From a virus (lineage: Duplodnaviria; Heunggongvirae; Uroviricota; Caudoviricetes): a stretch of 64,000 nucleotides of DNA. Below are positions 23,374 to 54,760 of this stretch, piece by piece. The notes under the pieces are model-generated. The model was not told the DNA's origin. It searched no databases and saw only the letters and a program-made list of their open reading frames with translations. The stretch lies in the IMG/VR virus record IMGVR_UViG_2713896798_000008, one strand, 5' to 3'. How positions within the stretch are numbered: position 1 is the first letter of the stretch; the number at the start of each line of letters is the position of its first letter. The position numbers were made by a program, and so were the translations under genes.

Positions 23374-23841
23374 CTAGTTAATACACTGAGTGCGGATATA
23401 TTCCTGCGCCCCTTCCAGCTGCTTCTGCATCATCATCAACCGTTCTCTGAGGATGAAATAATCCCGTTCAGCGGTGTCTGCCAGTCGGGGGCCGGTTGCA
23501 TTATCCACGCCGGAGGTGCCGGTGGCTTCACGCACGGTACCGTGGCAGGTGGCGTTGATCCGCAGGCGCTTACGACCAGCGGCAACATCAGCACGCAGAG
23601 TTTCATTTTCAGCTCTCGCATCGGCTAATTCCTTCGAGTATTTTGCATCGAGCGCAGCAACATCACGCTGACGCACCTGCATGTCAGTAATGGTGGCATT
23701 CGCCTGTTCCAGCTCTCTGGCTTTTTTATCGCGCTGCGCTTTGTAGGTGATGGCGTTATCGCGGTAATGATTAACAGCCCATAACAGACAGACGATGATG
23801 CAGATAACCAGAGCGTAAATAATCGCGGTTACTCTTCTCAC
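23374..23841 (-). CDS. Rz: spanin inner-membrane subunit Rz
   Basis: [17 protein letters not shown]...[16 protein letters not shown] matches lambda Rz; GTG start overlaps endolysin stop (GTGA). Confidence 0.85.
23436..23621 (-). CDS. Rz1: spanin outer-membrane lipoprotein Rz1 (embedded in Rz, +1 frame)
   Basis: Lipobox VVSAC and proline-rich [27 protein letters not shown] as in lambda Rz1. Confidence 0.8.
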
Positions 23842-24371
23842 TGATCTATCCCCCAACAAGCTAATGCGCTTTCCTGGTCACGACGAATAACCTGTCCGTA
23901 GCAGTTATTTGAACGTGTGCGGCAATCACGCCCACCGTCCTTAATCCACCAGCGAATCGCCTCACACGCTCCCCTGCGATCACCTGCATTAATTCGTTTA
24001 TAAAACGTCGACGGGAAACACTTACCGGGACCAATGTTGTACGGACAGAATGACGCAATCCCCGCTTTCTGGGGTTCGGTCAGTGGCACTTTGATGTTTT
24101 TCTCCACCCATGCCAGCGCCTTATCACGCTCAATGGCGTTAACCCGGTCGCATTTTTCCTTCGACAGCTTCATGCCAGGAATCACAGGCTTACCATCCAC
24201 CATGATGGCACCTCGGCAGATGGTCCAGATACCCGCACCATCACGGTATGCCGTGGTGTGGTTACCTTCCTTTTCATCCAGAAACTGGTCGAGAATGTCA
24301 GGCGCAGGCGCACCAGCGGCAATCAGCGCCAGAACGGCAGCCGACAGGCCGTATTTGATTTTGGTGTTCAT
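23838..24371 (-). CDS. SAR-type endolysin (T4-lysozyme-like, GH24)
   Basis: 177 aa; N-terminal signal-anchor [21 protein letters not shown]; near-identical to RrrD/RrrQ-type lysozymes. Confidence 0.9.
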
Positions 24372-24413
24372 GGATATTTATCAGGATTTATCGGCAACAG
24401 ATAACGAGCCAGC

Positions 24414-24974
24414 TTATATACGTCCTTTAAGATAAGTCAGTCCTGGATGAAACCAGTAAGCCGGCACTTTTTTAAAGGGCGGGTTGTCAAACTCACGAAG
24501 AAGAGCCTCCCGCACAACTGCATCCTTGTCAGCACCACTGGCCAGCGCTTCAATCTCAGCAGCTATCTGCAGATATCCCATGCAACGACCAATGCACTTC
24601 ATCAGCCCCTGCTTTTTATTGTTCTTCAGGTAATCAATGGCAAATTCAATGAGCTCCTCACTATGCTGGTGCGATGGCGGTGTTACTTTCCCATTTTCTG
24701 AGATGGTTATTTTCCCAGCATCACCGGATACAACAAAGGATGGCCGGTTACACTCCCATTCCAGCTCACTGAAATTATCATTATGAATACTGAAACACTC
24801 TGAGAGATTTCTGCTCATCACTTTCCGACAATAATCGTCAAACGCAGCAAACTGCTCATCGCGGCGTTTTTTTTCATCTTCAGAAGGCATCAGCGTCGAC
24901 AGTTTTTTATTCAGTTCAGCAATTTCATTTTCCAGACGACTGAAGCGCTGATTCATTTCTTCATGGTTCATCAC
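24414..24974 (-). CDS. hypothetical protein inserted between holin and endolysin (moron)
   Basis: 186 aa; coiled-coil-like N-terminus; occupies the slot held by ydfR in the Qin-like remnant; no family recognised. Confidence 0.5.
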   Translation of the reverse strand: MMNHEEMNQRFSRLENEIAELNKKLSTLMPSEDEKKRRDEQFAAFDDYCRKVMSRNLSECFSIHNDNFSELEWECNRPSFVVSGDAGKITISENGKVTPPSHQHSEELIEFAIDYLKNNKKQGLMKCIGRCMGYLQIAAEIEALASGADKDAVVREALLREFDNPPFKKVPAYWFHPGLTYLKGRI

Positions 24975-25181
24975 CTAATCTCCCCGGGCAGCCTTGCGAC
25001 GGTCCTCTTTAATTTTGAAATACAGGTTAGTCAGATACGTCAGCAGGCCAAACAGCAGACTCCCCAGCACACCTATCGCCACCCACTGGGACGGAGAGAC
25101 TTTGTCCAGCAGCTGCAGTAACCAGTATCCCGTCCCCACCGCTGACGTGGTGTATGACACACCTGTTGTGATTTTTTCCAT
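24975..25181 (-). CDS. S: class II holin (phage 21 S / pinholin family)
   Basis: [42 protein letters not shown]...[13 protein letters not shown] matches the S21/EssD family. Confidence 0.85.
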
Positions 25182-25230
25182 CCGATGTATGTCTCCGTCA
25201 CCGCCGACAGAAAATGAAAGTAAAGAAAAA

Positions 25231-25261
25231 CAAAAAAACCGCCAGTGTCACCCACTGACGG
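25231..25261 (-). terminator. candidate rho-independent terminator immediately upstream of S
   Basis: Hairpin ccgccagtg/cactgacgg (one mismatch) followed by U-run on minus strand. Confidence 0.35.
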
Positions 25262-25360
25262 CCAACTCCGGGAGCCGTGATTATGGCATTCAGGCTCTGC
25301 TAAAAATGCCAGATAACATTCCGGCCCCCCCCTAGTTCAGGTTATAAATGACACAATATC

Positions 25361-25480
25361 TTGACAACATCCGTCACTGTCTGTCAGAAAATATACCGCC
25401 AGGCATAAGTATCATGTGAAATCCAACTATCCTTTTGAGCCAGCACCTCTCCACCGAAAGTCAGTGCTGGCTGTTTTTTT
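25361..25480 (+). ncRNA. sRNA-like module 1 (TTGACA ... hairpin ... T-run); function unknown
   Basis: TTGACA at 25361, hairpin agccagcac/gtgctggct at about 25437-25472, then T7; paralogous to module 2. Confidence 0.25.
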
Positions 25481-25528
25481 CCTTAATAAAGCATCTGTAA
25501 CTGAAACAATCCGCATATTGATAATATA

Positions 25529-25627
25529 TTGACAGGCATCATTGCTGTCTGTGAAAAATAAGTCTCTACAAACATATAAGGCCTTTTAGCCAGCGTCTTC
25601 TTTCAGGTCAGCCGCTGGCTTTTTTTA
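25529..25627 (+). ncRNA. sRNA-like module 2 (paralogue of module 1)
   Basis: TTGACA at 25529, conserved ctgtctgt box, hairpin agccagcg/cgctggct, then T7 ending at nanS-p stop. Confidence 0.25.
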
Positions 25628-27529
25628 TTATGCTGCCGGTGCATTTATCTCCAGCACCAGACTTTCTATCTCAACGCCATACGCTGCATTTTTTGTAACA
25701 TCCGTCAGCGTCAGCGCATTCAGCCCCAGTGTCAGACTGTCTTTTATGACCTGGAATGCCGGGCCAGCCACTCCATTCAGTTTCGGAGTAACCGTGGCAC
25801 TGCCGGCGGTGAACACCAGCTCCAGCGTCTGCCAGTCGTTACCGTAATCGCCGAACTCCCCCAGCTTCGTGTTTCCGGCTTTCCTGTGATGCATCAGATT
25901 CACTCTGCCGTCAGTGGTCTGAGTGAAGTACGACATCAGGAACGGATTACCGGTACCCGTCATCGCCACACCATCAGGAACGGGAGCATCCGTATACAGA
26001 TAAATCCCCAGCCCGAACTGATTGTTGGTCAGTGCGCCTGACAGGCGGAACTTACAGGTCAGTCTGCCGCCCTGTGTCAGCAGGGTAATTGCGTCATCCA
26101 CCGGATGCGTCAGGGACCAGGTTTTATTGCTCTGCTTGGTGATCTTAAATACACCATCTGACAACTGAATTCCGCCATCCTTAATGCTCCAGCCCTGCGC
26201 AGCAGCCTCTCCGGCTGCCGGCAGCAGGGAGATTGTGCGAACGGACGTATCTGCAGACGGACCCGATGGCGTGTTGCCGCCGGGCGAGGGTTTGATTTCC
26301 GGTGCCTTACCACTGATGAAGGCTGAGGTGCGCCCGGCTGCGTTCAGAATAGCGGTTGCCATACGATCCGGAATAATGCTCCTGCGCGCCCATGAACTGA
26401 AATGTGTCGGGCGGTTTGATGATACCTGGTTTCCATTCGTTCTCGATGCCGCACCGTAATATCCTGATGCCGGAATATCCGGATCTTCTGCCGGCGCGTT
26501 AGTGGCGGTATTGACGCCGTTACCGTCTGTCATGAAGGGCACAAAATAAACGCCCTCACTCTCCCTGTTTTTATACCCGCCGTACACGGTGTCGTACTGG
26601 GTAGCGTATGTATTTTTCCAGTAATACGTCGTGTCACCACAAATCCACGGCACATCTGCAGCACTGCCACCATGGCACTGCGCGTTAAACACGGAGAGGT
26701 CAGCACGAAACTGTGTCAGCATGGCTGTAAACAGCGCAGGTTGCTGTGCGTGGGTGGCGGCGCTCATGTCAAACTCTCCCTGCATCCAGCACACCGCCAG
26801 CAACACATTTTTCGGGTTCTTCTGTAATGCAGCTTTGGTGCGCGCAATCAGGTCCTGATATAACGGTTTACCCACACCCCAGCGCGCCGAATCCTGGCTG
26901 GCCCCCGTGTCCGCACTGAATGTCCCCTCCGCGCCCTGGGTAAATGCCGAACCACCACGACAGCATGGTACCAGCAGGATCCCCGCGTTATTCGGGATAT
27001 ACGGGAGCAGTTTTTTGGCAATATGTAACCCCTGGCCGACACAGCCGTACTGCCCTTTGCTCAGGTCTGCCTTCGGATGATTCAGCGTACTCATATCCTG
27101 CACATCATGCAGGCAGTGGTCGGCCGGAATAATATCGTTATATCTGCAGGCAGCCCCACCCGGCGTCACTGTACTGCGGCGCGCCAGCTGCTTAATGCGC
27201 GGGTCCGGACGGTCATATGTCTCCGGCAGCGGAAGGCCTTCACCATATGCCATGCCGTTTGACTGCCCCGCCAGAACCACAACAAAGTAATACTCCGGGT
27301 CTCTGGTGGCGCTGATTACTGTGCCTTCTCCATCCGACGGCTTCACCACAACAGGTGTGCTCACATCACCTTCTGCGACAATCGCCTGAATAAGTGCTGC
27401 GCCATCATCCGTATACGAAGAAAACGGCCCGCCGTATGGCTGCCATCCTTCACGAATTTTTTGAGCAAGCGCATCCGCAAGGTCTGACGGCGACGCCGCC
27501 CTGACCACGTCATAGTGTTTAAATGCCAT
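25628..27529 (-). CDS. nanS-p: prophage sialate O-acetylesterase NanS-p (SGNH/SASA family)
   Basis: 633 aa; GQSN motif (VVVLAGQSNGMAYGE); position between tRNA genes and S as in Stx phages. Confidence 0.8.
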   Translation of the reverse strand: MAFKHYDVVRAASPSDLADALAQKIREGWQPYGGPFSSYTDDGAALIQAIVAEGDVSTPVVVKPSDGEGTVISATRDPEYYFVVVLAGQSNGMAYGEGLPLPETYDRPDPRIKQLARRSTVTPGGAACRYNDIIPADHCLHDVQDMSTLNHPKADLSKGQYGCVGQGLHIAKKLLPYIPNNAGILLVPCCRGGSAFTQGAEGTFSADTGASQDSARWGVGKPLYQDLIARTKAALQKNPKNVLLAVCWMQGEFDMSAATHAQQPALFTAMLTQFRADLSVFNAQCHGGSAADVPWICGDTTYYWKNTYATQYDTVYGGYKNRESEGVYFVPFMTDGNGVNTATNAPAEDPDIPASGYYGAASRTNGNQVSSNRPTHFSSWARRSIIPDRMATAILNAAGRTSAFISGKAPEIKPSPGGNTPSGPSADTSVRTISLLPAAGEAAAQGWSIKDGGIQLSDGVFKITKQSNKTWSLTHPVDDAITLLTQGGRLTCKFRLSGALTNNQFGLGIYLYTDAPVPDGVAMTGTGNPFLMSYFTQTTDGRVNLMHHRKAGNTKLGEFGDYGNDWQTLELVFTAGSATVTPKLNGVAGPAFQVIKDSLTLGLNALTLTDVTKNAAYGVEIESLVLEINAPAA

Positions 27530-28059
27530 GAATCCTCCCGGCCGGGATAATGTTGTGAGTCAGATAAGGGGCGGGCTGAAGTCCGGAAGTTACAGGACAA
27601 TGACAGAAGGAAGACTACAGCCCGCAATACGAAAAAGGCCGCGCAGTTGCGCAGCCTTATAAACCCTGGTTAAAATCCACACGATAAAAATGACAATGCA
27701 AGTATCTCATGCTGTTGCCCGAACCTACTCGGGCTTTTTTTGCATGTAAAAAGGCTCCTGCGATGAGGAGCCTGGATATATGCCTAATCTCTGTATACAG
27801 CATGATGCCGGGTGCCTCCCGGTGAATTCTGCAATGACCAGACAGAATCCGCAACTTGCCTATACAATACGCAACCAAACATCTGTCATTATGCCCCGCC
27901 GCCCAGGGGGATTCATCATGCAGGATTTTTTTAACAAACGCTCAGCATGTCAGGCAACAGTCAACTACCTGAATTGTGAGGCATTTAACATTTCACTGTC
28001 CGGTGTCTTTCCTGTAATAAAAAGCCCGCAAAAGAGAGTCAGGGCAGATAAGTGTGGTG

Positions 28060-28136
28060 TGGCGCGTTGTACTGGATTCGAACCAGTGACCGATTGCTTA
28101 GAAGGCAATTGCTCTGTCCGGCTGAGCTAACAACGC
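28060..28136 (-). tRNA. argO: tRNA-Arg (anticodon UCU)
   Basis: Cloverleaf read manually: acceptor GCGTTGT/ACAACGC, anticodon loop CTTCTAA, T-loop GGTTCGAATCC, discriminator G plus CCA; 77 nt. Confidence 0.85.
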
Positions 28137-28149
28137 AGAATACCGATAA

Positions 28150-28215
28150 TGGACCGCCACCGGGGACTCCGAATCTCGCACAGGGTGACGTTCTTTCCTG
28201 ATGAGCTAGTGGCGG
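28150..28215 (-). other. degenerate tRNA-like element between the two tRNA genes (possible argN remnant)
   Basis: 7-bp acceptor-like pairing CCGCCAC/GTGGCGG plus CCA end but only 66 nt and no convincing D or anticodon arm. Confidence 0.25.
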
Positions 28216-28216
28216 T

Positions 28217-28292
28217 TGGTGGCCCTTGCTGGATTTGAACCAGCGACCTGGCGATTATGAGTCACTCGCTCTCACCACTGAGCTAAAGGGCC
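28217..28292 (-). tRNA. ileZ: tRNA with CAU anticodon (Ile2/lysidine type, ileZ-like, or Met)
   Basis: Cloverleaf read manually: GGCCCTT acceptor, CTCATAA anticodon loop, T-arm GCTGGTTCAAATCCAGC, CCA; similar to E. coli ileX. Confidence 0.85.
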
Positions 28293-28332
28293 GGGCGCAG
28301 AATAATAACGGTGCGTCACTGATTCTGCAATA

Positions 28333-29391
28333 TCATCCGTTCTGACTGATTAAATCCTGAACTTCCCTGACTGTCTGCTCAAAACGTCCGGTCTCCAGCT
28401 CAACACCAATCGCCCTACGTCCCAGTGACAGCGCCGCTTTTACCGTTGAACCTGACCCCATGAAGAAATCTGCAACCAGGTCTCCCGGACGACTGCTCGC
28501 ACTGATTATCTGCCGCAGCATTTCTGCCGGTTTTTCGCACGGATGTTTTCCGGGATAGTACTGTACGGGTTTGTGCGTCCACACATCCGTATAAGGAACC
28601 GCAGCCGATACGGAAAAATAACGCCGCAGGGTTTTATACTCTTCCTGCAGGCTGACATATTGTCGGTTCAGTTCACTGTATGTACTGACCAGCTGGTGGT
28701 GTGGCCATTCCAGTTCACCGCGCTGATGCTTCTCTTCTGCCACCCGGACAAACAGCGCCTGTAATTTCAGATAATCGCTTTCGTTCGGCAACTGCCACTG
28801 ACTGGCACTGAACCAGTGCGACACCATGTTTTTCTTTCCTGTGACATCTGCAATCTGTTTTGCCGTTATCCCCAGGGCAGCGCGCGCATCACGAAAGTAA
28901 GCAATCAGCGGGGCCATCACATGCTGTTTCAGTGCCCTGCCCTTCGCCTCACAGCCATCATCTTTCGGGCGATACGGCCCCTGATAATGTTCCGCGAACA
29001 GAATGCGCTCTGTGGCCGGAAAATACGCCCGCAGGCTTTCCTTGTTACACCCGTTCCAGCGTCCGGACGGCTTTGCCCAGATGATATGGTTCAGTACGTT
29101 AAACCGCTCACGCATCATGATTTCGGTGTCAGATGCCAGGCGATGGCCACAGAACAGGTAAAGACTTCCGGCTGGTTTCAGCACCCGCCAGAACTGCGCA
29201 AGGCACTGGTCCAGCCACTTCAGGTAATCTTCATCACCCACCCACAGGTTATCCCAGTCCGCGGGTTTCACTTTGAAGTACGGCGGGTCCGTGACTATCA
29301 GGTCCACAGAATTTTCGGGTAACGACCGCATAAATTCCAGGCAGTCGGCGTTGATTAACTCATAACTGGATATTTTTACAGTATTAAGCAT
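28333..29391 (-). CDS. orphan DNA methyltransferase (N6-adenine/N4-cytosine, DPPY motif)
   Basis: 352 aa; motif IVTDPPYF; no adjacent restriction endonuclease gene. Confidence 0.85.
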   Translation of the reverse strand: MLNTVKISSYELINADCLEFMRSLPENSVDLIVTDPPYFKVKPADWDNLWVGDEDYLKWLDQCLAQFWRVLKPAGSLYLFCGHRLASDTEIMMRERFNVLNHIIWAKPSGRWNGCNKESLRAYFPATERILFAEHYQGPYRPKDDGCEAKGRALKQHVMAPLIAYFRDARAALGITAKQIADVTGKKNMVSHWFSASQWQLPNESDYLKLQALFVRVAEEKHQRGELEWPHHQLVSTYSELNRQYVSLQEEYKTLRRYFSVSAAVPYTDVWTHKPVQYYPGKHPCEKPAEMLRQIISASSRPGDLVADFFMGSGSTVKAALSLGRRAIGVELETGRFEQTVREVQDLISQNG

Positions 29392-29541
29392 GGATCATTA
29401 AGCCTGTCTCTGATAGGCTCATTCTGCTTTTGCGCAAAGCAGTGGGCCTGAGGTTTGCTTGTGATCCAGACGCATGAGCAGATGGCTGGTGAGTGCCCCT
29501 AACACCCACCAGCCGCCCATTTACCACAAATAAAAAAGCCT

Positions 29542-29823
29542 TCAGGACTGAAGGCGTCTGTAACAACCGAACTGATAGTCTGCCAGACCCGCCATAACCA
29601 GCTGGGTCAGTATTAACTGGCAGCGTTCGCGTGAAAGGTAAGTATTCTGCGCAATCTCCCCGACTGTCGCCGGGTCGGTAACGCTTAATTCATTAAACAC
29701 CACTCTGGCGGTTTCTGTCATATCCTGCTGTTTTAGCATGCCTTTTTTCCCTTTTCCGGTTAACGTGACATACCAATAACTCTTGTCGAAAAAGCCAGCA
29801 AGCTGAAAGACCCGTATTCGCAA
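29542..29823 (-). CDS. hypothetical protein downstream of tR'
   Basis: ORF track; internal start MLKQQDMTETARVV possible; no family recognised. Confidence 0.3.
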   Translation of the reverse strand: MRIRVFQLAGFFDKSYWYVTLTGKGKKGMLKQQDMTETARVVFNELSVTDPATVGEIAQNTYLSRERCQLILTQLVMAGLADYQFGCYRRLQS

Positions 29824-29863
29824 CCACCAGCGCGTTTACTGTACTGACGCGATTTTCGGGCAT

Positions 29864-29890
29864 AAAAAAACCGCCTGGCGGCGGTTTTTT
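29864..29890 (-). terminator. tR'-like terminator downstream of late promoter
   Basis: Hairpin ccgcc-tggc-ggcgg flanked by A7 and T6 (bidirectional form). Confidence 0.5.
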
Positions 29891-29939
29891 CTTACTTTGC
29901 CATCGCGTACAAAATCGGCAAAATATCAGATTTACATGA

Positions 29940-29968
29940 AATATATGCTCTTCAGTTCTATTTTGCAA
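29940..29968 (-). promoter_or_regulatory. candidate late promoter pR' (sigma70 -35 TTGCAA, 17-bp spacer, -10 TATATT)
   Basis: Minus-strand hexamers at 29963..29968 and 29940..29945, immediately downstream of Q stop. Confidence 0.45.
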
Positions 29969-30647
29969 GATATGGTTCTAAATTAAGCGACTGTTGCCGT
30001 GATCGTACCCGCATTACTGAAATAAGAGCATCCCTGTCCAGCCCCTCTGCACTACCCCGCATAGCCAACCAGTGAGGCCTGTGTGTTGTTGTCCATGTAG
30101 ATTTAGCAACTCCCATCAACACCGCCAACGCCTGATGTTCATAGGTCTCACGCCCGACCAGCTCGCTCTTCACATCCTGTACAGCCAGCCAGATCAACCT
30201 CTTCAGGCGTTCCTGCGTTTTCCCCGCTATTTTTCTGGTACCGGATTGAGCCTTAAACTCACTCCATACCCACTGTGTTATGGTGACCTGATCTTCCCAG
30301 CAAACATTTCCACTGTAGCACCACAGTAACCACGCCTTCTGATGCTCTTCCAGTTCCAGAACGGCACGCCGCCACGATGATGTTGAAAACTCAACCGGAC
30401 TGACCAGAGGAATTGACGTCCCCTTCGCCAGCGATTGCTTTCCCGGGATTGGTGGATTATCCCGCGTTATCATTTTTCCAGTCACTTCATCGCGGTACCG
30501 GATTTTTTTTCGCCTGTAACGCCCTGTATCGAACATGGCATTCTCTTGCCAGGCTTCAAGCTGACCTTTTGTTGCCCCACTCAAATCAGCGGTGGCGATA
30601 ATGAGCTGCTCACGCACAAACTGTAAATACTGGTTATTCATGCGCAC
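29958..30647 (-). CDS. late-gene antiterminator Q-like protein
   Basis: Called by position (after rusA, directly before the pR'/tR' candidates); sequence family not recognised with certainty. Confidence 0.5.
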   Translation of the reverse strand: MRMNNQYLQFVREQLIIATADLSGATKGQLEAWQENAMFDTGRYRRKKIRYRDEVTGKMITRDNPPIPGKQSLAKGTSIPLVSPVEFSTSSWRRAVLELEEHQKAWLLWCYSGNVCWEDQVTITQWVWSEFKAQSGTRKIAGKTQERLKRLIWLAVQDVKSELVGRETYEHQALAVLMGVAKSTWTTTHRPHWLAMRGSAEGLDRDALISVMRVRSRQQSLNLEPYLAK

Positions 30648-30997
30648 TCCAGTTCTGTGATTTTTATCCCCAACCGCCCACCAGGAACGAGTTGACCGCG
30701 CACAATATTGATTTCATCAAACTGCTCGTCGTCTATGAGTAGTCCGGCATGCGTCAGCGCATCCAGTGGTGCTTTCAGGATATTGTCCAGGTCACGACGG
30801 CGCTTATCCGGTGGCTCTGCAATAATCTTTATCGCCAGCCTTCCGGACAGGTTTAATTTCAACCGCTGCTGGCGAACAATAAGCGCCACTGCCCGGCGAT
30901 AACGCTCCCCGGCTTTTGATACAAAATATGTGCTGCCACGGCGTCGCCAGTAAGTGTTCACTGTCGGCGGATAAGGTAAAACCAAATCTATGAGCAT
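30638..30997 (-). CDS. rusA: Holliday junction resolvase RusA
   Basis: 119 aa; RusA-family motifs (DKRRRDLDNILKAPLDALTHAG). Confidence 0.85.
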   Translation of the reverse strand: MLIDLVLPYPPTVNTYWRRRGSTYFVSKAGERYRRAVALIVRQQRLKLNLSGRLAIKIIAEPPDKRRRDLDNILKAPLDALTHAGLLIDDEQFDEINIVRGQLVPGGRLGIKITELECA

Positions 30998-31009
30998 CAG
31001 TCACCTCTT

Positions 31010-32059
31010 TTACCCGAGCACGCCAGTTGCAAAGGCGTGATCAAGAAAACGAAAAATTAACTCAACCTGGGAGCCGTACTTTTTCTCAAACTCCAGCGGG
31101 TCAGCATGAAGTTCGTTGTGATGTTCCCGGCACAACGGTAGCGTGAAAATATCGTGGGCCTTTGTTCCCATTCCCCCCTGACCATGACCAATCAGGTGAT
31201 GCGGATCGTCAGCTGGCTTACCACAACACGCACACGGCTGTGTCTTTACCCAGCGCGTGTATTTCTCATTAACCCAACGGCGACGTTTAGGCCGCCTCAT
31301 GAACGATTCAGGAGACTCCGGATCAACAGCGATACTGACAACCGTTTTTTTCTGTGGTGGATTTTGTTGCTGGTGGACGTGAAGTGGCAGCGCAATATTT
31401 TTTGTGCGCTGCTTCAGTATGCTGATGGCTGTCTGTTCTCCCGGTACGATGTCACTCTCACGGTATACGGAGCGGATTTTTTCCGCTGGTAATCCCAGCG
31501 AACGACGCGCTACTGCCTCAGGCAGTGCATCCACCACCTGATTGCAGGCCGCCCACCAGGATAATTCGGCCAGCGATAACTCCCTCTCCTGCGTACCGCT
31601 TATTGCGTGACGGATGACGTCAATCATCCAGGCAACCAGATTCTGCTGAGCAAGTTGATCGAGTGATTCTGATGTCTGGTCGCGCAGCTGGTTGTCACAG
31701 TGCCAGCACAACACCATCGCGCCGGTACCGTAACGGTGAATGACGGTTTCGCTGTGATGATAATCGCCATGTGGCCACTGGCAGGATTTCACTTGACGTA
31801 ATAACCAGTCAGACAGTGCACCAGCGCCACCCGCAGCACAAATCACCCGTTCGTTGCTGAAAAATGGCAGTAATGTTTTATCCTCTGCCAGCGGCTGTCG
31901 AACGGCAGGAACGACTCCGGACGGCAGACCGCGCATGTTTTTCGGTTCCGGCTCCACCAATATTCTGCCGTTATGGAATGCTGACATTGATTCACGGCCC
32001 GGCTTTAGGAGCACCATCCCGAGTTCCGGTACCAGAACAGGTCGAAGTAATACCCGCAC
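31010..32059 (-). CDS. DUF968 (YdfU-like) protein with C-terminal HNH-like motif
   Basis: Paralogue of 56161..57249; CACCGKPADDPHHLIGHGQGG...CREHHNELH. Confidence 0.75.
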   Translation of the reverse strand: MRVLLRPVLVPELGMVLLKPGRESMSAFHNGRILVEPEPKNMRGLPSGVVPAVRQPLAEDKTLLPFFSNERVICAAGGAGALSDWLLRQVKSCQWPHGDYHHSETVIHRYGTGAMVLCWHCDNQLRDQTSESLDQLAQQNLVAWMIDVIRHAISGTQERELSLAELSWWAACNQVVDALPEAVARRSLGLPAEKIRSVYRESDIVPGEQTAISILKQRTKNIALPLHVHQQQNPPQKKTVVSIAVDPESPESFMRRPKRRRWVNEKYTRWVKTQPCACCGKPADDPHHLIGHGQGGMGTKAHDIFTLPLCREHHNELHADPLEFEKKYGSQVELIFRFLDHAFATGVLG

Positions 32060-51089: not shown

Positions 51090-51360
51090 GATGTTACCGT
51101 AGTATGTGAGTATCCATCGAATAGACACCAAGCAAAAAAGCTCCCGAAGGAGCCTTCATTTTCACTTTTTTAAATCCAACGACAGACGGCTGGCATTTAA
51201 GTATTGTGAAATATTATCAAATGTAATCATCATTGATTTACAAAAGATACATTTTGCCCCGAAAGGATTCATGTCAGAAACATCAAAAGATGATGTTCTA
51301 TACTGGGAACCATGACAACACGGGCATCTAAAGTGAATATGGTTTGTAATATTGTCTACC

Positions 51361-51573
51361 TCAAAGCGCCACTACATGAACAGCGGCAGGACCTTTAGGT
51401 CCGTTCTCAATACCAAATTCAACTTCCTGATTCTCAGTTAATGTTTTGAAATCGTTGCTCTGAATTGCTGAGAAATGGACAAACACATCTTTGCTGCCAT
51501 CTTTCGGCGTGATGAAACCAAAACCTTTTTCAGGGTTAAACCATTTCACTAAACCAGTCATTTTGTTAGACAT
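51361..51573 (-). CDS. cspI: cold-shock protein CspI-like
   Basis: [23 protein letters not shown]... CspA family. Confidence 0.85.
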
Positions 51574-51935
51574 AATTATTACCTTTTGAAGAAATTAGCC
51601 CTTGGGCAGAATGGTCCGAAAAAAAATATCAGAGAGAAAAACCAACAAGGAAATCTCAAGAGGTACAAATAATAAAATTATAACAATGACTGCTTCAGAT
51701 AAATTTGTAACAAACCAGAACACCATTAACGCATGATTAACCACCCATAGCAAGGATTACTTTTGTAAAGAAAAACACAGCAATGAAAGAATGGCTTTAT
51801 TTATTAATAAAACGTGTCATTCTGATTAAGACCTTTTATCTTACCCTTAAGATTTCAGGAATTTTGGCTCATGGAAGAGTCCTTTTTATTTAAATTTTAC
51901 ATTCCGCGATGTAAATGTTCCGATTTAATATTACC

Positions 51936-53881: not shown

Positions 53882-54244
53882 TTGATTTTATTAGTAACAA
53901 GTATTTTTTATATTTTAATAATATATTTAAAGCAGATAATAAAAAACCCGCCTGAGCGGGTTTGAGATTGTGGTGCTTTTTGTGGGAGTCATCCACTTAC
54001 GCACTTTGTTTTGCCATGCCAGCAGTTAGCTTCTGCTGTAAAACTATTCATGCAGCAAACCTGCACTTCACCACAATGGTTAGCATACTTTTCCTGATTA
54101 AGATTTTGCCAAATATGCTAGCCATTGTTTCATGTATTGGACCTCCTTACTTTTTATTAAAGAGATCCAATATTCACTACTCTGTCCGTATCTCTACTCA
54201 GGCATCAGCCTTCTTCGTTATCGTATACAGACGAGCGATGAATT

Positions 54245-54460
54245 TTAATCAGTAATGATGACATTTGCTGCTGCAGGACCTTTAGCACCACTCTCTATAG
54301 AGAAGGTAACCTTTTGACCTTCAAATAAGGTTCGATAATTATCATTCTGAATCGCAGAAAAATGCACAAACACATCTTTACTACCATCAACAGGAGAAAT
54401 AAAGCCGAAACCTTTATCAGCGTTAAACCATTTTACTAAACCAGTCATTTTATTTGACAT
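54245..54460 (-). CDS. cspB: cold-shock protein CspB-like
   Basis: [23 protein letters not shown]... Confidence 0.85.
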
Positions 54461-54760
54461 TCTACATTCCTTAACTTGAGCCTTTCGGCATAAATGGTTT
54501 GCATAACAGAAACGACTTCGTACTTAATTGGAGAGACTCAAAGAAGGAATAAGTGAATAACACCTGAAATGAGAACTGCTTTAGTAAACTACTTCGTATA
54601 TCGTCTGTTCTTCAAACCGACGCAATCATTAACGCATAGTTGAACATATGAAGCAATGTTTATTTTAGACATCCAGCCATCTTCAACCCCATCAAAAAAC
54701 TATAGCTTTCTTCAGGAACGTGTGTATAGTGCGCCAAGTTATCAGTATTAAGGAATTTTT

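Follow-up and report, generated by a model that had tools for sequence, protein, structure and literature searches.

The stretch of DNA analysed here (hereinafter the window; 64,000 nucleotides of the Caudoviricetes record IMGVR_UViG_2713896798_000008) carries what looks like a complete prophage, because late, early, integration and replication genes are all found in it. Coordinates refer to the window and, unless a plus strand is named, features lie on the minus strand and are written in their direction of transcription. Upstream of the region of interest the plus strand codes for an integrase, ExoVIII and a CI-like repressor, and the minus strand for replication genes, RusA and a DUF968 protein. 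These are followed on the minus strand by the late antiterminator gene Q (30641..29958) and, beyond a set of cargo genes, by the holin S, a 186-aa ORF, the endolysin R, Rz/Rz1, the terminase, the portal, a ClpP-capsid fusion, the tape measure protein and J. The lysis genes comprise a class II holin S (25181..24975), the lysozyme R (24371..23838), Rz (23859..23374) and, embedded in the latter, Rz1 (23621..23436); PF04971 and PF00959 are the Pfam families cited for the cassette, which is further backed by its ORFs and the RefSeq annotation of an identical locus. The cassette is interrupted, since the 186-aa ORF (24974..24414) is wedged between S and R; it matches PHROG 1085 and other PHROGs of unknown function, and no Pfam or NCBIfam model matched it. 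Outside the late region, the minus strand has three further Rfam hits (46941-47139, 51334-51719 and 54229-54621), which correspond to an IS009 RNA and a pair of cspA-type thermoregulator leaders.

The 227-aa product of Q can be placed with ease by sequence comparison: it matches the Pfam family PF06323 (1.1e-88, profile positions 1-217 of 220) and PHROG 304, “anti-termination protein Q-like” (3e-103), and is 68.3% identical over 227 aa to the Q protein of phage 82 (X92588.1) and 67.4% identical to that of phage 434, which its depositors labelled “Q82-like”. Three unrelated families of Q proteins have been distinguished, namely Q82 (PF06323, which bears this name), lambda (PF03589) and phage 21 (PF06530) (PMC9388147). 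The Pfam scan returned PF06323 alone, which sets the protein apart from both the lambda-type and the phage-21-type families and assigns it to the Q82-family antiterminators. A sequence search of the PDB, which includes the solved lambda Q and Q21 chains, recovered no relatives of this protein and neither did a search of NCBIfam.

Directly at the 3′ end of Q lies a candidate late promoter, pR′, with a TTGCAA −35 hexamer (29968..29963) positioned over the last codons of Q (..L-A-K), a 17-bp spacer (29962..29946) that holds the Q stop codon TAG (29960..29958) and a TATATT −10 hexamer (29945..29940). The initial annotation had described a near-consensus promoter overlapping the Q stop; the promoter is indeed found there, at 29968..29940, but the epithet is generous as it matches the consensus at only 9 of 12 positions (four of six in the −35 and five of six in the −10). 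Such a match is not by itself beyond chance because a scan of 24000-31500 recovered 10 promoter-like sites against 6.4 ± 3.2 in shuffled sequences, a count near the shuffle level. The Q-binding element (QBE) of such promoters is located between the −35 and −10 elements (PMC4914094); accordingly placed, the spacer would be the candidate QBE, a guess guided by its conserved positions described below.

The transcript predicted from this promoter, which starts AAAUCUGAUAUUUUGCCGAUUUUGUA, can be set against the pR′ promoter of phage 82. At the latter, the wild-type transcript opens with AAA, on which the polymerase stutters; a −10-like pause element occupies +9..+14, with an extended −10 motif ahead of it, and the GCC discriminator follows at +15-17. 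Positions +18 to +25 are AT-rich and include a G at +24 (as deduced from a 1-nt insertion at +18, which brings a G to the end of the pause) and a U at +25; pausing takes place at +25/+26 (PMC5001585). If +1 is placed at 29933, the first A of AAA, 7 nt past the −10 hexamer, the leader in the window carries all of the features that were checked: AAA, TGaTATTTT, GCC, the AT-rich stretch, G+24 and U+25. This comparison is a match to the positions stated in the text of that work rather than an alignment; the leader was otherwise compared with that of phage 434. With the start inferred at 29933, all the published phage 82 positions fall in register. The σ70-dependent pause element thus extends over 29928..29917, with TG at +6/+7, TATTTT at +9..+14 and GCC at +15..+17. 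It is present as sequence, and the pause itself is predicted at 29909/29908 (+25/+26), the position seen in phage 82.

We also considered a conserved hairpin at +9..+41 of the leader and rejected it: its 5′ arms lie 3 nt out of register among the loci despite variants such as GCC/GGC, GTCG/CGAC and GCTGCC/GGCGGC; its stability relative to dinucleotide shuffles has a median z of about −1, falling below −2 in 9 of the 31 loci aligned; and it was not recovered by RNAalifold.

The promoter is followed by a strong intrinsic terminator, tR′ (29891..29864, +43..+70), composed of a hairpin and a U-run with the sequence AAAAAACCGCCGCCAGGCGGTTTTTTT at 29890..29864. It starts 44 nt past the predicted +1, in agreement with the earlier reading of a strong hairpin and U-run after the promoter, and would yield an RNA of about 70 nt. 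The fold (−18.7 kcal/mol, z = −5.6) was matched in stability by none of 200 shuffled sequences. As the hairpin has both an A-run and a T-run, a terminator is called on the plus strand too. Neither at tR′ nor at the terminator ahead of S (see below) did any Rfam family reach its gathering score; the sub-threshold matches, namely STnc370 on the plus strand (36 bits vs 54), isrK (22 vs 50, E = 0.006) and the Phe leader, appear to be driven by the terminator hairpin. Only about 19 nt separate the predicted pause for Q loading (+25) from the start of the terminator, which extends to about +70; in lambda, termination occurs at +193/194. Given this short distance from pause to terminator, Q82-type proteins must confer termination resistance very soon after loading.

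To place these elements in a comparative framework, we scanned one genome per species for Q relatives, which yielded 32 loci with Q proteins of 56-79% identity, and aligned 31 of the regions downstream of Q from about 15 genera, including Escherichia, Shigella, Citrobacter, Kluyvera, Enterobacter, Klebsiella, Leclercia, Raoultella, Buttiauxella and Siccibacter. TTGCA is invariant in the −35 of all 31 loci, the spacer is 17 bp long in every one of them, and the −10 keeps at least four of six consensus positions throughout. Five spacer positions (29962, 29961, 29956, 29954 and 29952) are likewise invariant. GATA(T/C) of the pause element keeps a constant distance to the −35 in 31/31 loci (one locus being 1 nt shorter). 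The mean column conservation is 0.97 in the −35, 0.93 in the −10, 0.92 over +1..+5, 0.97 in the TGn and 0.96 in the GCC, with the pause-element sequence as such at 0.86-0.97; it is 0.58 over +27..+43 and 0.40 past the terminator. In all 31 loci there is also a terminator-like hairpin trailed by T-rich sequence, which in about four cases is short or interrupted, and the predicted terminated RNA ranges from 52 to 115 nt (median 76). The stems are unrelated in sequence: there are 24 distinct tR′ hairpin sequences among the 31 loci, and six of the nine stem pairs in the RNAalifold consensus display compensatory double changes. Thus, pR′ is more than a chance occurrence because the −35 core, the spacer and the pause element are fixed in the midst of diverged non-coding flanks. 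We read this pattern as a signature of selection for promoter, pause element and terminator, which answers the objection from chance; the late promoter and terminator that had been noticed directly after Q accordingly represent an architecture conserved across Enterobacteriaceae.

The invariant TTGCAA reads the same on both strands, and the phage 434 record annotates this hexamer on the opposite strand as the −35 of paQ, within a CII site (TTGYN6TTGY); at 29955-29976 in the window the second CII half-site is degenerate (TTGC-N6-TGGT). A double role of this kind might be the reason that TTGCAA has been fixed in place of TTGACA.

The short RNA predicted from the pR′–tR′ unit raises the possibility that the unit is additionally an sRNA gene, whose product of about 70 nt acts in trans in the lysogen, a role that would be compatible with antitermination. 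There is a precedent for this in the short late-promoter RNAs documented as by-products for Stx phages (StxS), lambda (6S) and phages 21, 82, phi80 and P22, of which StxS is an Hfq-binding RNA that regulates rpoS and stx1B (PMC7547250). The predicted RNA also has a stable fold (−26.5 kcal/mol, z = −4.4) and carries an A-rich linker, AGUAAGAAAAAA, ahead of a U-tailed terminator, and it shows a weak, sub-threshold Rfam likeness to sRNAs such as the above-mentioned isrK. Against this, no Rfam family matches it at threshold, conservation past +26 is poor (0.58), the upstream hairpin is not consistently above shuffle stability (median z of about −1), the pR′–tR′ sequence was not found in the searchable text of papers, and StxS itself is derived from an unrelated 258-nt leader of the Q933 type. 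On balance we consider an additional sRNA role unlikely, and the more specific proposal, by analogy to StxS, of a trans-acting, Hfq-binding regulatory RNA in lysogens more doubtful still. Were the latter true, the A-rich linker and the U-tailed terminator would be the handles for Hfq. About 21% of the complete E. coli genomes have related copies of the pR′–tR′ unit.

Between tR′ and S lie 4.7 kb of cargo. Its first ORF (29739..29542), annotated as 65 aa in RefSeq, belongs to PHROG 331 of unknown function and is closed by a terminator that overlaps its stop codon (29555..29532; −10.5 kcal/mol, z = −3.2). The 65-aa version covers positions 35-98 of the PHROG 331 profile (length 111), and a 93-aa version is open from a TTG at 29823, 41 nt past tR′; the true start may lie upstream of the annotated one. 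It is followed by an N6/N4 DNA methyltransferase (29391..28333; PF01555 at 3e-43) and a pair of tRNA genes, tRNA(CAT) (28292..28217) and tRNA-Arg(TCT) (28136..28060), preceded by a putative promoter of the form TTGCAG-17-TATTAT (28330..28302). The tRNA(CAT) is called Met by ARAGORN and tRNA-Ile in RefSeq for an identical gene (our locus L001), and two further loci of the set (L002 and L004) have a similar promoter-plus-tRNA unit directly past tR′. Next comes the sRNA STnc100 (27950..27742; Rfam 175.6 bits) with its terminator (27773..27752; −13.5 kcal/mol) and, convergent to it on the plus strand, the anti-GcvB sRNA AgvB (27682..27741; 56.2 bits against an Rfam threshold of 56). As these two are encoded on opposite strands, late transcription would run head-on through a convergent sRNA gene. 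The pair fills the slot, past the tRNAs and ahead of nanS-p, that is taken by stx in the Stx phages. A further sense-strand terminator (27658..27635; −18.3 kcal/mol) is followed by the gene for a 633-aa NanS-p-like sialate O-acetylesterase (27529..25628) with the Pfam domains DUF1737, SASA and DUF6645, whose homologues in the Stx phages and phage 434 are annotated as yjhS or SASA esterase.

The 450-nt spacer between nanS-p and S ends in a second prominent terminator (25263..25227; stem 25263..25237, T-run 25236..25227; −19.4 kcal/mol, z = −5.3), which corresponds to an annotated terminator in phage 434. A hairpin of this kind had been noticed about 50 bp before the holin, and our analysis bears this out, its end lying 46 nt ahead of the S ATG at 25181. 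The accompanying proposal that the polymerase would read through at least two terminators is an undercount: there are five strong sense-strand terminators between pR′ and S (starting at 29890, 29555, 27773, 27658 and 25263) and a weak one (25325..25308), as judged by scan and fold. The scan of 24000-31500 recovered 14 terminator-like sites against 6.5 ± 2.4 in shuffled sequences. A weak hairpin after tRNA-Arg (28046..28012) did not exceed the stability of shuffled sequences (z = −0.2) and was left out of the terminator count. The spacer as a whole is about 98% identical to its counterparts in phage 434 and the Stx1 phage H-19B (97.6% for H-19B), and at this identity the pre-S terminator has no covariation support.

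The scan found no promoter-like site in the 46 nt between this terminator and the S start codon; hence, any S mRNA must cross the terminator. This bears on an alternative in which the pre-S hairpin does no more than close a cargo or intergenic transcript at its 3′ end and S has a Q-independent promoter of its own. Such a notion draws on a promoter-like CAGACA-17-TATATT (25551..25523) in the nanS-p to S spacer, and on the fact that morons often bring their own promoter and terminator (PMC8065619). However, the said site lies upstream of the pre-S terminator, so that its transcripts would meet the terminator as well, the remaining gap from the T-run to the ATG is the promoter-free 46 nt, and the arrangement is kept in phages 434 and H-19B, all of which makes a private promoter for S highly improbable. 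The pre-S terminator probably serves to block transcripts from the cargo promoters (those of the tRNAs and STnc100 and the candidate at 25551), which are independent of Q, and to keep them out of the holin gene in the lysogen.

The same spacer contains other features. An 8-G run (25325-25332) is its main length-variable spot, with phage 434 having an interrupted version, GGGGAGG (6 G), where H-19B has six consecutive G; the run may be slippage-prone. Two hairpins, at 25430-25478 and 25605-25621, have their T-runs on the plus strand and so would terminate transcription antisense to the late operon; homologues of both are annotated as opposite-strand terminators in phage 434.

These observations can be compared with the late regions of well-studied phages. 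With phage 82 the locus shares the Q family (68% identity), the leader features at the positions described for the 82 pR′ and a terminator shortly thereafter; it differs in about one Q residue in three, and in the window 4.7 kb of cargo lie ahead of the lysis genes. Phage 434 (OL657226.1) has the same layout: it combines a Q82-like Q (67%) with TTGCAA-17-TATACT overlapping the end of Q and an annotated terminator about 50 nt past the Q stop, and its leader aligns with that of the window. It also has the SASA esterase gene, the spacer of about 98% identity and an annotated terminator about 45 nt ahead of a class II holin. Its leader, however, is shorter and lacks the +9..+41 segment, and its cargo between tR′ and the esterase consists of membrane proteins as opposed to the methylase, tRNAs and sRNAs of the window. 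The Stx phages (933W, H-19B and Sakai Sp5/Sp15) display the same order of Q, pR′, tR′, tRNAs, cargo slot, nanS-p and S-R-Rz, with cargo and lysis genes alike under Q-dependent readthrough. Unlike the window, with its 82-type Q, leader of about 70 nt and STnc100/AgvB in the slot, they have a 144-aa Q of the Q933 type, a 258-nt pR′ leader that yields StxS, and stx. Finally, the unit of pR′, 6S RNA and tR′ in lambda shares with it a constitutive late promoter that contains a QBE, a σ70-dependent pause close to this promoter and, in the absence of Q, a short terminated RNA, although its Q belongs to the unrelated family PF03589 and its pause (+16/17) and tR′ (+193/194) lie at positions other than the predicted ~+25 and ~+70 of the window. 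The arrangement, as found in phage 82, phage 434 and the Stx phages, is thus a textbook design with nothing unusual about it. The late switch as such is already known, the phage-82 type having been biochemically characterised and both terminators being annotated in the phage 434 record.

Taken together, the sequence elements, the Q family, the conservation and covariation, and the identity to annotated phage records, which are what we observe directly, make it very likely that a complete lambdoid prophage with a Q of the phage-82 type has its late control region at 29968..29864. Judged by its sequence, this region is the pR′/qut/tR′ of such a prophage without stx genes. For its operation we rely on the work on phage 82 and lambda, from which the start site, the pause, Q loading, readthrough and the pre-S insulation are carried over, and on the Stx phages, where pR′ is constitutive, transcription terminates at tR′ and readthrough depends on Q (PMC7547250, PMC8065619). 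By this analogy, pR′ would fire with or without Q from about 29933, and σ70 retained in the early elongation complex would re-bind TGaTATTTT (+6..+14), which together with GCC (+15-17) would pause the polymerase at about +25/26. Without Q, the polymerase would escape from the pause and terminate at tR′ (+43..+70) to release the RNA of about 70 nt. Upon induction, Q would bind the promoter spacer, load onto the paused complex and confer terminator resistance; the modified polymerase could then cross tR′ and the four further strong sense-strand terminators, the last of them 46 nt ahead of S, traverse the 4.7 kb of cargo into S-R-Rz, and continue to the terminase, head and tail genes about 29 kb downstream. 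Gene order and strand are consistent with such readthrough into S, R, Rz, terminase, portal, capsid, tape measure and J. The Q82 family membership and the 82-type pause element, together with the conserved architecture and the promoter-free 46 nt ahead of S, therefore make the original suggestion, that the lysis genes might be reached only by a Q-modified polymerase, the best-supported reading. The contrary view, that the hexamers are a chance match and the hairpin merely a bidirectional terminator that closes an early operon including Q and stops antisense transcription, with the late genes driven from elsewhere, can appeal to the commonness of 9/12 matches and to the terminator call on the plus strand, but is barely credible in light of the −35 core, 17-bp spacer, −10 and pause element kept at fixed spacing in 31/31 loci with diverging flanks, their agreement with the published 82 pR′ positions, and a scan that found no other candidate late promoter ahead of the lysis genes.

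The value of these results is mainly one of annotation: they place a pR′, a Q utilisation site and a tR′ that are unannotated in RefSeq, in a type of prophage that is common in E. coli. Indeed, when the 116-nt pR′–tR′ segment was compared by megablast with 5426 complete E. coli genomes, 1144 of them (~21%) gave matches, for the most part at 80-95% identity, among them O157:H7, O111:H8 and O127:H6 strains. The alignment of 31 loci should also be of use for work on the Q82 family, for which the PDB search gave no relative. While the understanding of late-gene control is unchanged, the position of the cargo, namely the methylase, the tRNAs, the STnc100/AgvB sRNAs and the NanS-p esterase, together with the lysis genes behind a chain of terminators implies that their full late expression should require both induction and Q.
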